A DNA stretch of 64,000 nucleotides from sequence record OR327750.1. The stretch is one strand, 5' to 3'. The DNA is from Escherichia phage KK4. A program made the translations under genes and the position numbers. The notes under the pieces are model-generated. The model did no database searches and was not told where the DNA came from. It saw only the letters and a program-made list of their open reading frames with translations. Each line of letters starts with the position of its first letter. Within the stretch, counting starts at the first letter, position 1. Shown piece by piece: positions 24,243 to 27,275 of this stretch.

Positions 24243-24806
24243 TTATTTACCTAGTTTACTTATTATAGCTTCTGCAGCAGCTTTTAGCTTAGATGCAGTG
24301 TTAATACGATTTTTAATTTCAGTATACGCATCGCCAAGAACATCAAGGCTATCAGAATAAACACTTACACTATTGCGTTCGCTATTTGAAATAGAACCTT
24401 TAGTTTTGCGGTCAAAATCGGTGTACACGTCTTGAAGATCGCGGGCTGCCTTCTTTGCATCATCCAATGCATCAAGAGCTTTATTCAAAGCATTAACGTA
24501 TTTTTTAGTGTCGAACATATTCTTAGAAATTTTAACAGGTGCGCGTTCAGGAGTAGCTAACACAGATTTAGGAACCTGAGCGCCAGATGCCAATTTCTTA
24601 GAAATTTTGAAAAATGCTTTATTGAATTTATTTTCTTGACTCATTGTAAAAGAACTATTATCGATGTTGTACATTTCAATAGCTTTAGCTTTCCACTTAA
24701 GAAAATCGCCGCGGTCTTTTGGGTCCAATTGGAAGAATACTTTAGTAAGATCTGCTTCAGATGGTAATTTTGCTGCTTCGGTTAAAAATTCGGCATAGGT
24801 TTTCAT
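24243..24806 (-). CDS. internal-protein-like head protein with capsid targeting sequence (IPIII-like), 187 aa
   Basis: N-terminus MKTYAEFLTE resembles T4 IP capsid targeting sequence MKTxxEF...E; Lys/Ala-rich; terminator downstream. Confidence 0.6.
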   Translation of the reverse strand: MKTYAEFLTEAAKLPSEADLTKVFFQLDPKDRGDFLKWKAKAIEMYNIDNSSFTMSQENKFNKAFFKISKKLASGAQVPKSVLATPERAPVKISKNMFDTKKYVNALNKALDALDDAKKAARDLQDVYTDFDRKTKGSISNSERNSVSVYSDSLDVLGDAYTEIKNRINTASKLKAAAEAIISKLGK

Positions 24807-24896: not shown

Positions 24897-24923
24897 AAAA
24901 AGCCCCAACCTTTCGGTCGGGGC
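24897..24923 (-). terminator. rho-independent terminator after IPII-like gene
   Basis: Hairpin GCCCCGACC-gaaa-GGTTGGGGC then UUUUU; identical copy at 25454-25480. Confidence 0.7.
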
Positions 24924-24931
24924 TAAGAATG

Positions 24932-25405
24932 TCATTTGATTTGTTTAGCAGACCAAATGCGGTCTTTAATAATTTTTTGGATGTCTTCAACATACTCAAG
25001 AGAGTGAACATGTGGATTATCTTTGAAACTATAAGCACGGGCTAACTTTTGGCCTTCGGTTTTGATTACTAAAAGCTCTTTAAGGATAGCTTCATATTTA
25101 GCGATAATTCCTTTAACGATATTTTTTTCTTGTGCCGCTTTAGGATCTGCTTTAGGAGCAGGTTTACCCGAAGCCTTTGCAAAAGCAGCGCCAGTAGCAA
25201 CTAAACTTTTCCAGGCCATACTAACTGCATTTCCCGTAAATCCTTCCGCTTTCATGTCGCGTGCAAACTGGAATCGCGATTCATCAGAAGCATCTTTATA
25301 GGAATATTTACCCGCGGCAATGGCAGCTTTTGCAACAGCTTGAATTTCGGTGCTAGATGCTTCATTTAACACCGCTTCATTTAAAAATTGAGTATATGAT
25401 TTCAT
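24932..25405 (-). CDS. internal-protein-like head protein with capsid targeting sequence (IPII-like), 157 aa
   Basis: Starts MKSYTQFLNE; TATAAATA late promoter upstream; ORF-track N-terminal extension rejected because it reads through terminator and promoter. Confidence 0.55.
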   Translation of the reverse strand: MKSYTQFLNEAVLNEASSTEIQAVAKAAIAAGKYSYKDASDESRFQFARDMKAEGFTGNAVSMAWKSLVATGAAFAKASGKPAPKADPKAAQEKNIVKGIIAKYEAILKELLVIKTEGQKLARAYSFKDNPHVHSLEYVEDIQKIIKDRIWSAKQIK

Positions 25406-25443
25406 CTTATTTCCTGTTTTAATTTGTAGATTTAATATACTAA

Positions 25444-25451
25444 TATTTATA
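25444..25451 (-). promoter_or_regulatory. T4 late promoter motif TATAAATA upstream of IPII-like gene
   Basis: Exact octamer on minus strand ~39 nt upstream of ATG at 25405. Confidence 0.5.
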
Positions 25452-25453
25452 CC

Positions 25454-25480
25454 AAAAAGCCCCAACCTTTCGGTCGGGGC
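25454..25480 (-). terminator. rho-independent terminator at end of tRNA/small-RNA transcription unit
   Basis: Same hairpin and U-run as 24897-24923. Confidence 0.7.
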
Positions 25481-25487
25481 TAAGCCT

Positions 25488-25788
25488 TGCGGCAACCTTG
25501 TCGGGGTTCCACCTGCTAAGGCAAGTGTTTGTACGAAACGCCGGGATTCGAACCCGGTTATTAAGTAGTTGACGCTACTCAATATTTTTAAAAGGCCATA
25601 TCTCGACCATATCCGAACGTTCCGTCAAAAACGCTACTCGGCTTACGGCAAAGATATTTCCTCGAATCGATAATTCGGTGCGCCGTTTCTGCTGTGATAG
25701 TAAAGAGCCAGAACACAGTAAAACTGTGGGAGGAAACTATACTCCAGGGAACATCAGTCCGACGACTTACCGGTAGCGACCCGGTTTC
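25488..25788 (-). ncRNA. structured non-coding region distal to the tRNA cluster; possible small stable RNA(s) with a tRNA-like T-arm
   Basis: No credible ORF; several hairpins; CCGGGTTCGAATCCCGG T-arm-like element at 25541-25557; position equals that of T4 species 1/2 RNAs from memory. Confidence 0.3.
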
Positions 25789-26139
25789 TTAATATTCTTT
25801 TAAAGAATCAATATATTCACGGCGTTTACGCCACAAATCAATTGCTTCATACGCGGATTCAGCATTTCGAATTAGCCGGCATTTATGTAAAGACTTATGA
25901 TTTTGATATTGTGTAGATAACGGAATTGTATCTAAAAGGTCTTTACGATCAAAATATTCGTAACCATCTAAACCAAATGAACGATTTTTGAGAAATTGCC
26001 AATGACCAAATTCGTTTTGAATATAAATATAATCCGCGTGTTGATAAAGTAAATTAATTTCACGAAATGAGATATGTTTTTCATATTCATTGAAGTAAAA
26101 TGTTAAATCATGAACTACTAAATAAACATTACCTTTCAT
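25789..26139 (-). CDS. hypothetical protein, 116 aa, embedded in the tRNA operon
   Basis: ATG after GAGGAAAA, 19 nt downstream of tRNA-Arg. Confidence 0.45.
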   Translation of the reverse strand: MKGNVYLVVHDLTFYFNEYEKHISFREINLLYQHADYIYIQNEFGHWQFLKNRSFGLDGYEYFDRKDLLDTIPLSTQYQNHKSLHKCRLIRNAESAYEAIDLWRKRREYIDSLKEY

Positions 26140-26157
26140 ATTTTCCTCACTTATAAT

Positions 26158-26233
26158 TGGTCGAGGCAGTAGGGATCGAACCTACGACCTAGGACTTAGA
26201 AGGTCCTTGCTCTTCCTTCTGAGCTATGCCCCG
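26158..26233 (-). tRNA. tRNA-Arg (anticodon UCU)
   Basis: Manual cloverleaf: 7-bp acceptor, T-loop TTCGATC, anticodon loop CTTCTAA, encoded CCA. Confidence 0.8.
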
Positions 26234-26237
26234 TAAT

Positions 26238-26313
26238 TGGGGTGACCGATGGGAGTCGAACCCATGACTACGAGAATCACAATCTCGAGTTCTACCAACT
26301 GAACTACGGCCAC
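26238..26313 (-). tRNA. tRNA-His (anticodon GUG)
   Basis: Manual cloverleaf: anticodon loop TTGTGAT, discriminator C73, encoded CCA; position -1 is not G. Confidence 0.7.
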
Positions 26314-26426
26314 ATTAATACCTACTCCAACAATCAAGATGTCTTCACACGAAATTAAGAGAAGAGTGATCAGTTCAACCCTATAATCGCGTCAAGTAGA
26401 TATTAATGTGACAGTTGTCACAAATT

Positions 26427-26501
26427 TGGCGGACGTGATAGGATTCGAACCTATAACCAATCGCTTAACAGGCGATCGCTCTGCCATTGAGCTACACATC
26501 C
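26427..26501 (-). tRNA. tRNA-Asn (anticodon GUU)
   Basis: Manual cloverleaf: anticodon loop CTGTTAA, T-loop TTCGAAT, encoded CCA. Confidence 0.75.
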
Positions 26502-26505
26502 AAAT

Positions 26506-26592
26506 TGGTGGGGAGTGATGGAGTCGAACCACCCGAGTCGCAATGACAATGGATTTACAGTCCACACCGCTACCTCTACGGGATAACTCCCC
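26506..26592 (-). tRNA. tRNA-Tyr (anticodon GUA), type II with long variable arm
   Basis: Manual cloverleaf: anticodon loop CTGTAAA, 87 nt, encoded CCA. Confidence 0.7.
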
Positions 26593-26605
26593 TTAATTCT
26601 TAATT

Positions 26606-26680
26606 TGGTGGCCCTGGGTGGAATTGAACCACCATCTGGCGATTATGAGTCGCTTGCTTGAACCTTCCAGCTACAGGGCC
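26606..26680 (-). tRNA. tRNA with CAU anticodon (Met, or Ile2-type AUA reader)
   Basis: Manual cloverleaf: anticodon loop CTCATAA, T-loop TTCAATT, encoded CCA. Confidence 0.7.
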
Positions 26681-26681
26681 T

Positions 26682-26757
26682 TGGTGCTGATTGACGGAAT
26701 CGAACCGCCGACCTTCTCATTACAAGTGAGTTGCTCTACCTACTAAGCTAAATCAGC
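26682..26757 (-). tRNA. tRNA-Thr (anticodon UGU)
   Basis: Manual cloverleaf: anticodon loop CTTGTAA, perfect 7-bp acceptor, encoded CCA. Confidence 0.8.
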
Positions 26758-26762
26758 AAAAC

Positions 26763-26852
26763 TGGCGGAGGCGATAGGATTTGAACCTATGAGTCGCCGG
26801 AGCGACTGCCGGTTTTCAAGACCGGTGCATTAAACCACTCTGCCACGCCTCC
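26763..26852 (-). tRNA. tRNA-Ser (anticodon UGA), type II
   Basis: Manual cloverleaf: anticodon loop CTTGAAA, long variable arm, encoded CCA. Confidence 0.8.
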
Positions 26853-26854
26853 AG

Positions 26855-26928
26855 TCTCCATACAAGGATTTGAACCTTGGACCTCCTGATCCCAAATCAG
26901 GCGCTCTACCAAACTGAGCTACACGGAG
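26855..26928 (-). tRNA. tRNA-Pro (anticodon UGG), CCA not encoded
   Basis: Manual cloverleaf: anticodon loop TTTGGGA; 3-prime end abuts tRNA-Ser by 2 nt (dimeric precursor arrangement as in T4). Confidence 0.8.
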
Positions 26929-26938
26929 TAAATTAAAT

Positions 26939-27012
<74 letters not shown>

Positions 27013-27017
27013 AAATT

Positions 27018-27104
27018 TGGTGCGAGAAGTGGGACTCGAACCCACAAGGAAATCATTCCGCAGCATTTTAAGTGCTGTGCCTTTACCAATTTGACCATTC
27101 TCGC
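27018..27104 (-). tRNA. tRNA-Leu (anticodon UAA), type II
   Basis: Manual cloverleaf: anticodon loop CTTAAAA, long variable arm, encoded CCA. Confidence 0.8.
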
Positions 27105-27105
27105 G

Positions 27106-27178
27106 CTGGGAATAAAGGACTCGAACCTTTGCATCCTGGAATCAAAATCCAGTGCCTTACCAACTTGGCTAATTCCCA
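27106..27178 (-). tRNA. tRNA-Gln (anticodon UUG), CCA not encoded
   Basis: Manual cloverleaf: anticodon loop TTTTGAT; abuts tRNA-Leu (Gln-Leu dimeric arrangement as in T4). Confidence 0.8.
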
Positions 27179-27275
27179 ATTATTAACAAAGGCTCTCAAG
27201 CAAGAACCCTTGATGATAGAGGGTATTAATCAGTGCGATATGAGTTAATAATAACAAATAATTCTTAAAGCATAT

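Follow-up and report, generated by a model that had tools for sequence, protein, structure and literature searches.

The T2-type trna.2-rnaD-rnaC module at the distal end of a Tequatrovirus tRNA operon and the comparative fold of rnaC

Gene order at the distal end of the operon

The window, that is, the whole stretch of 64,000 nucleotides analysed here, is derived from a Tequatrovirus (T4/T2-like phage). Its minus strand carries 11 tRNA genes from 27178 down to 26158, and the region described below represents the distal end of the T-even phage tRNA operon in its T2-type form, in which tRNA-Arg, trna.2, rnaD, rnaC, a trailer, and a terminator follow one another in this order (Table 1). The trna.2-rnaD-rnaC module of T-even phages was already known, and the same order is given for T2L in GenBank record AJ880101. 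We assigned a probability of about 0.85 to this identification of the region, including the statements on processing made below. The RNA region was matched in 770 phage records by megablast, nearly all of them from Tequatrovirus and its relatives, and in 770-805 records of T4-like phages across the blastn-type searches.

Table 1 Features of the distal tRNA operon in the coordinates of the window.
Feature	Position	Strand	Basis
tRNA operon, 11 tRNAs	26158-27178	-	ARAGORN, Rfam
tRNA-Arg(UCU), final tRNA of the 11	26158-26233	-	ARAGORN; Rfam tRNA model, 66.1 bits
116-aa ATG ORF, homologue of T2L trna.2 (phrog_3355, function unknown)	25789-26139	-	ORF listing, PHROG, tblastn
rnaD (species 2 RNA) homologue with T2-type centre	25677-25792	-	alignment to T4 rnaD; same placement relative to the ORF as in AJ880101
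6-nt spacer GAAUUA between rnaD and rnaC	25671-25676	-	alignment to the T4 annotation
rnaC (species 1 RNA) homologue, 139-nt tRNA-like RNA	25532-25670	-	138/139 identity to T4 rnaC; covariance model R1, 160.5 bits
rnaC acceptor-like stem, 5' strand CGAUUCG (partner CGUUUCG at 25534-25540, two U.U)	25663-25669	-	covariation
rnaC long-arm apical loop UUGACG	25623-25628	-	same in 23 variants though the stem beneath is replaced
rnaC hairpin-5 loop CGUCAA, candidate kissing partner	25569-25574	-	full complementarity to the long-arm loop
rnaC T arm CCGGG-UUCGAAU-CCCGG (CCGGGTTCGAATCCCGG)	25541-25557	-	third stem pair G-C, U-A, or A-U, depending on the phage
Conserved operon trailer with small hairpins	25486-25531	-	alignments; with the terminator included, fold z = -4.0
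Intrinsic terminator of the tRNA operon (10-bp stem, GAAA loop, U tract)	25453-25481 (hairpin 25458-25481)	-	terminator scan

The operon would be transcribed as a single RNA of ~1.8 kb, from a MotA-type middle promoter near 27274 as the probable start to the terminator hairpin at 25458-25481, and this transcript would carry the 11 tRNAs, the small protein gene trna.2, rnaD, and rnaC. A MotA-box-like sequence, TATGCTTTA, was found upstream of tRNA-Gln at 27274 on the minus strand. In T4, the tRNA cluster gives a single primary transcript of ~1.75 kb, which starts at a middle promoter and ends after species I RNA (PMC2330249).

Two further observations were made on the tRNA genes. The 3' CCA is encoded in nine of them and is absent from tRNA-Pro (26854-26928) and tRNA-Gln (27105-27178), both on the minus strand, so these two need CCA addition by the host. 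A 113-nt spacer between tRNA-Asn and tRNA-His (26314-26426, minus strand) is unannotated; it gave neither a tRNA call nor an Rfam match, and it folded better than its shuffles (z = -2.95).

On the downstream side, the terminator hairpin AGCCCCGACCGAAAGGTTGGGGCT occurs twice in identical form on the minus strand, at the end of the operon and at 24901-24924. The two copies flank the gene 24932-25405, which has a paralogous next gene (24243-24806); both belong to phrog_2280, a family of unknown function. A late-promoter sequence, TATAAATA, lies at 25451 on the minus strand, directly past the operon terminator and ahead of the next gene.

The earlier note, which had been made from the sequence alone, described a 116-aa ORF with a good Shine-Dalgarno sequence starting 19 nt after tRNA-Arg. 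This was confirmed: the CCA of tRNA-Arg is followed by 18 nt (ATTATAAGTGAGGAAAAT), the ATG begins at the 19th base, and GAGGA is located at 26146-26150, with GTGAGGAAAATATG as the upstream sequence and GTGAGGAAAAT in the 18-nt gap. The ORF product matched phrog_3355 over residues 1-115, that is, at full length (E=8.5e-51), and was 87% identical by tblastn to the product of the 116-aa trna.2 CDS of T2L in AJ880101. In T2L, trna.1 and trna.2 are both ORFs without known function (PMC2330249). Homologues of trna.2 were detected by tblastn in 425 phage records. The family is limited to T4-like phages, because an exhaustive profile search of 1.84 billion proteins returned just 8 cluster representatives. 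In Erwinia and Pectobacterium phages, remote homologues with 30-36% identity likewise lie directly behind a run of tRNA genes in the cluster. The AlphaFold model, of mediocre confidence (pLDDT 66.5), predicted a beta/alpha unit at the N terminus and, at the C terminus, a long helix that includes WRKRRE. The ORF product matched no Pfam entry and no PADLOC family, and a PDB sequence profile search gave nothing meaningful.

Homologues of rnaD and rnaC downstream of trna.2

The stretch beyond the ORF (25488-25788) had been read in the earlier note as free of ORFs and rich in hairpins, and both observations held. No ORF of at least 60 aa was found in it save a 5' TTG extension (24932-25582) of the downstream gene, whose ATG is at 25405; this extension crosses the terminator and is purely mechanical. 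The only other ORFs were of 32-42 aa. The 346 nt after the ORF folded to -124.9 kcal/mol, as compared with -99.1 +/- 5.1 kcal/mol for shuffled sequences (z = -5.0). When the parts were folded separately, the z-score was -4.6 for rnaC and -0.2 for rnaD alone, and that of the trailer is given in Table 1.

The small ORFs were considered as candidate genes and rejected, their homologues carrying frame-breaking insertions and deletions. It has nevertheless to be asked whether the stretch codes for small proteins, for example through the 42-aa GTG ORF at 25588-25716, since 'hypothetical protein' CDSs are annotated here in many GenBank records of T4-like phages. However, insertions and deletions of 1 nt occur inside the 42-aa ORF among homologues, the substitutions track base-pairing and not codon positions, and the ORF spans the junction of rnaD and rnaC, a junction that is missing from phages lacking one or the other RNA. 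We consider a coding role of this stretch to be extremely improbable.

As a further possibility, the earlier note had suggested that the stretch might correspond to the species 1/2 RNAs of T4, whose boundaries it left undefined. Alignment to the T4 reference (NC_000866; rnaD 71053-71171, rnaC 70908-71046) bore this out. Only one of the 139 positions of rnaC differed, and for rnaD ~45 nt at the 5' end and ~25 nt at the 3' end were shared with T4, the centre being of different sequence. The limits of both RNAs, rnaD from 25792 to 25677 and rnaC from 25670 to 25532, were set by homology and are thus putative boundaries transferred from T4 and T2L. The position of rnaC also agreed with this assignment, since it follows rnaD and precedes the terminator where the operon ends.

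The searches with tRNA and Rfam models showed that the stretch is not a canonical tRNA that had been misfolded. ARAGORN reported neither a tRNA nor a tmRNA after the ORF. In the Rfam scans, run with gathering and with E-value thresholds, no family covered rnaC or rnaD, and the matches were tRNAs and chance-level matches. No match to RF00005 was obtained in 25486-25795, where the best related model was tRNA-Sec (17 bits versus a cutoff of 47). A tmRNA was likewise not reported by Rfam for the stretch, and rnaC holds no tag reading frame. The sole match of YrlA (RF02553), at 17.7 bits versus a cutoff of 69, fell on tRNA-His/Arg and not on rnaC.

The 5' end of rnaD overlaps the stop codon of the 116-aa ORF. 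The rnaD of T2L is annotated in AJ880101 as 'predicted by 5'- and 3'-end homology', and the same criterion fits here. By their central sequence, the 15 rnaD variants form three or four types, of which the window carries the T2 type. In their consensus, 97% of the cells were paired, as compared with 32-50% in slid controls, and five pairs had changed on both sides. The 5' hairpin is CCGG-GUCGCUA-CCGG. A short helix shows an exchange between U-A and A-U (8 versus 6 sequences, with 1 exception), and the variable apical hairpin has four covarying pairs at its base. The closing helix, in which GUCGUCG pairs with the 3' strand CGGCGCAC, was invariant in the variants compared, and the comparison therefore neither supports nor refutes it. 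The structural support for rnaD is weaker than that for rnaC.

A 9-nt direct repeat, GAGUAGCGU, was noticed in rnaC at its positions 32-40 and 91-99 (25631-25639 and 25572-25580), where the copies form the 5' strands of two helices. The sequence GUAGCG is also complementary to the rnaD 5' hairpin, at its loop GUCGCUA and the adjoining first base of the stem. The first copy of GAGUAGCGU is not kept in divergent clades, and the repeat may be due to chance.

We then compiled rnaC homologues, which are 138-141 nt in length. In phages of Enterobacter and Kosakonia (Karamvirus, Kanagawavirus, and Winklervirus), blastn in its distant mode located rnaC between ordinary tRNA genes; in these genera and in Mosugukvirus, rnaC occurs between tRNAs without rnaD. 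The family was widened by pattern scans of IMG/VR and metagenomes, followed by searches with a covariance model built here (R1), which added a divergent group in Marfa-type Klebsiella phages and, between tRNA-Ser and tRNA-Trp of Pectobacterium phage PM2, a further homologue (L159, 2029-2171). The PM2 homologue and those of the Marfa-like Klebsiella phages (L031-L033, L036, L046), all with a U-CCA end, were previously unannotated. Conversely, a clean deletion of rnaC, with rnaD and the trailer kept, was found at five loci (L024, L026-L029), where GCGCACCGA is joined directly to ACACTTGCC. Since rnaD occurs without rnaC and rnaC without rnaD, the two RNAs are not mutually dependent. In this, rnaC behaves as one more gene of the tRNA array, gained and lost like a tRNA gene. 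The family thus extends beyond Escherichia phages to those of Enterobacter, Kosakonia, Klebsiella, and Pectobacterium.

Outside these lineages, the searches for rnaC gave nothing beyond chance. A pattern scan of bacterial contigs returned 104 loci against an estimated ~130 chance matches, and the covariance model accepted none of the 80 loci of these on which it was run. The rnaC region had no blastn match in 5,426 E. coli genomes, and looser viral pattern scans gave only chance matches beyond the known lineages and PM2. Two neighbouring elements were also seen. In a VR20-like phage (L023), the place of rnaC just downstream of rnaD is taken by two GC-rich hairpin repeats in tandem, GAGCGGGCGGTGCGCCCGGTAGTATG and GAGCGGATGGTGCATCCGGTACTATG. 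In Kosakonia phage Kc304 (L004, 1345-1505), a segment of ~155 nt separates tRNA-Ile from the rnaC homologue. It closes with a T-arm-like hairpin and, behind this, AGCTCCCACCA; the segment resembles a degenerate tRNA, and ARAGORN did not call it.

The distribution bears on whether the RNAs act in cis. As a 3' UTR and terminator module, the region could make the transcript of the operon or the mRNA of trna.2 more stable, or adjust the read-through into the genes that follow. In favour of such a module, the region is flanked by the last coding gene and the terminator, and rnaD starts at the ORF stop codon; a regulatory role was speculated on in PMC12685909, and the trailer is retained even in phages without rnaC. 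However, in other genera rnaC is found in the middle of the tRNA array, far from any terminator and without rnaD; in T4, rnaD comes after a tRNA and not after an ORF, and both T4 RNAs are discrete and stable (PMC3014915, PMC9697503). The presence or absence of rnaC by itself, and its location between tRNA genes elsewhere, suggest a free-standing RNA rather than a cis element, and we regard an action in cis as improbable.

Comparative fold of rnaC and a candidate loop-loop contact

The fold of rnaC was derived from 28 variants of several phage genera, after an earlier pass with 20 sequences, and is strongly supported. With 20 sequences, 98.1% of the cells of the consensus were paired, as compared with ~40% for slid partners, and 24 of the 45 pairs showed two-sided change, which none of 500 shuffles reached. 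With 28 sequences, 97.3% of the cells were paired versus ~40% when the partners were slid by 1-3 columns, and 28 of the 50 pairs had changed on both sides; again, no shuffle attained such values. The minimum-energy fold of the single sequence was the same as the comparative fold.

The two ends of the RNA form an acceptor-like stem of 7 bp with two U.U mismatches. Its third pair is A-U in 13 sequences and G-C in 15. PM2 has A-U where the first pair is otherwise C-G, and U-A at the two positions of the U.U mismatches. Directly after the 5' acceptor strand begins a long irregular arm, followed by an A-rich single-stranded linker and a 10-bp hairpin. The 3' part consists of one base and a 5-bp T stem, capped by a 7-nt loop, which continues without a break into the 3' acceptor strand. 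The stem is followed by an unpaired U (position 73) and then by ACA in the T4-type and Karamvirus-type sequences or by CCA in those of the Klebsiella phages and PM2; in the window, the UA of the tail is at 25532-25533. This ending has the layout of a tRNA 3' end.

A T-arm-like element without a recognisable anticodon arm had been pointed out in the earlier note; this element is CCGGGTTCGAATCCCGG, which we now place as the T arm of the tRNA-like rnaC. The long arm stands in for both the D and the anticodon arms, and the 10-bp hairpin occupies the place of the variable arm. In the homologues of Kc304 and IME523 the T loop is non-canonical, and full tRNA mimicry is thus not universal.

Two other pairings of the 3' acceptor strand were considered. 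The minimum-energy fold of the whole region paired GAAACG of rnaD with CGUUUC at the 3' end of rnaC. This pairing was rejected because the rnaC homologues of other genera, which have no rnaD, use their own 5' end as the partner of that strand and show compensatory change. The other concerns the record of phage KKP_3262 (L003), where the rnaC homologue is annotated as 'tRNA-Phe(gaa)' over its last 96 nt (1547-1642), a call that ARAGORN reproduced. Such a tRNA needs an internal ACGAAAC to pair with the 3' strand. It was rejected since the variable position is G.U in the T4-type and A.C in the Karamvirus-type sequences, and since EnC15, L016, and the Klebsiella clade have another sequence in place of this segment.

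In most of the ~800 records of T4-like phages, rnaC and rnaD are unannotated or lie under spurious 'hypothetical protein' or 'tRNA-Phe' features, a 'hypothetical protein' CDS of phage GADU22 (L002, 3025-3153) being one example. These features look like annotation artefacts that arise from the absence of an Rfam family.

The apical loop of the long arm, UUGACG, and the loop of hairpin 5, CGUCAA, are complementary at all six positions. Both loops were constant in 23 variants, including EnC15, L016, and L034, in which one stem below the loops is rewritten. The five remaining sequences, all from Klebsiella phages, have UUGGCG and CGCCAA, a double change from A-U to G-C, and CGCCAA was found exactly in the sequences that have UUGGCG. 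Consequently, all six pairs can form in 28/28 sequences (100% paired). In PM2, 4/6 of the pairs are kept. These findings are suggestive, though not conclusive, of a kissing contact between the two loops, the alignment offering one compensatory event in one clade. The contact could also be intermolecular, since the intramolecular form needs the long arm of ~25 bp to bend back.

The same two motifs can be read at the DNA level as an inverted repeat, with TTGACG on each strand, which might provide half-sites for a dimeric protein or -35-like boxes. TTGACG does resemble the sigma-70 -35 hexamer, and symmetric half-sites would also change together, giving TTGGCG on both strands. However, the half-sites would be ~54 bp apart from first base to first base, and a promoter scan gave no promoter-like site with either motif. 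Furthermore, both motifs coincide exactly with apical loops of hairpins that covariation supports, which makes the DNA-level reading very unlikely.

Proposed maturation, possible roles, and relation to known systems

The host enzymes of tRNA maturation would excise rnaC by way of its acceptor/T minihelix, with RNase P acting at the 5' end and an exonuclease at the 3' end. The cut by RNase P would also free rnaD, which would then be trimmed by an exonuclease to one base past the GUCGUCG/CGGCGCAC helix. The annotated 3' end of rnaD lies one base past this closing helix, as would be expected from such trimming. The 5' end of rnaD in this phage cannot be taken from T4, because rnaD follows an ORF here and not a tRNA, and rnaD may stay attached to the trna.2 mRNA.

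Reviews as well as recent omics work describe RNAC and RNAD as RNAs of unknown role (PMC3014915, PMC9697503). RNAC of T4 has been confirmed by northern blot, and both RNAs were classed as late (PMC9697503). Among the papers covered by our literature search, none was a functional study of rnaC or rnaD.

One assumption would be that both RNAs are remnants of tRNA genes that have decayed, or pieces of spacer, which have no function and accumulate only as structured by-products of tRNA processing. Their location in the tRNA operon, the T arm and acceptor stem retained in rnaC, and the lack of rnaC in some phages are in line with this assumption; so is the dispensability of the T4 tRNA region for growth on laboratory hosts. 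However, rnaC has kept 138/139 identity between T4 and this phage, though the centre of rnaD and the ORF content differ. Moreover, 24-28 pairs have been kept by compensatory change across genera, and the loops are fixed over replaced stems, from which we infer purifying selection on the folded rnaC. As for rnaD, when a T4-like phage was evolved on a semi-permissive host, each of the three lines convergently acquired the same SNP in this gene (PMC12685909). Mere by-products are unlikely in our view. Taken together, the comparative data, as we read the alignments, argue against processing by-products, an action in cis, DNA half-sites, and small peptides.

The role that we favour for rnaC, though it is doubtful, is that of a mimic of the tRNA acceptor end. 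It would tie up a factor, of the host or of the phage, by which tRNA 3' ends are recognised, and its locked body would bar it from translation. A more specific proposal, which is rather unlikely in all its parts, is that rnaC, as an acceptor-end mimic matured like a tRNA, would serve as a decoy or sponge for a factor of this kind, such as a host defence toxin, that the loop-loop lock would bar its entry into the ribosome, and that rnaD would be a second, host-specific counter-measure. Nothing examined here points to a particular binding partner. If the decoy proposal were true, it would give a function to the 50-year-old species 1/2 RNAs and establish RNA anti-defence factors as a class encoded in phage tRNA arrays. 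The comparative fold of rnaC, with its U-(A/C)CA tail and co-varying loops, makes the function of species 1 RNA experimentally addressable.

Among known systems, rnaC and rnaD of T4 (NC_000866) are the direct homologues of the RNAs described here, the 5' and 3' thirds of rnaD being identical or nearly so. T4 has the same order of rnaD, a 6-nt spacer, rnaC, the trailer, and the terminator at the same place, the end of the tRNA operon. In T4, however, rnaD begins 1-2 nt past tRNA-Arg, whereas the 116-aa ORF intervenes here, and the central ~45 nt of T4 rnaD differ in sequence from the T2-type centre. T2L (AJ880101; Brok-Volchanskaya et al. 2008, PMC2330249) is closer in this respect, with the same tRNA-Arg, trna.2, rnaD over the stop codon, and rnaC, and with the same rnaD centre. 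The T2L cluster differs in that tRNA-Asn is directly followed by tRNA-Arg, without tRNA-His and the 113-nt spacer; the window has both of these as well as tRNA-Thr, and lacks the trna.1 ORF of T2L.

The comparative fold of rnaC resembles class II tRNAs and the tRNA-like domain of tmRNA in that a 7-bp acceptor stem is continuous with a 5-bp T stem. The likeness to class II tRNAs further includes the T loop, which is mostly the canonical UUCGAAU, the hairpin at the place of the variable arm, the discriminator-like U followed by CCA or ACA, and the location among tRNA genes. In contrast to these RNAs, rnaC has neither a D arm nor a 7-nt anticodon loop, and the acceptor stem of most members contains two U.U mismatches. 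The Rfam models of tRNA, tRNA-Sec, and tmRNA and ARAGORN do not accept rnaC; as a tRNA, it is rejected by ARAGORN and Rfam because the D arm and the anticodon loop are absent.

For the candidate loop-loop contact, fully paired kissing complexes of 6-nt loops are known, for example HIV TAR-TAR*. The likeness to rnaC consists of two 6-nt hairpin loops with six complementary positions. The two cases differ in that both loops of rnaC lie in a single RNA of 139 nt, whose putative contact may form within one molecule or between two.
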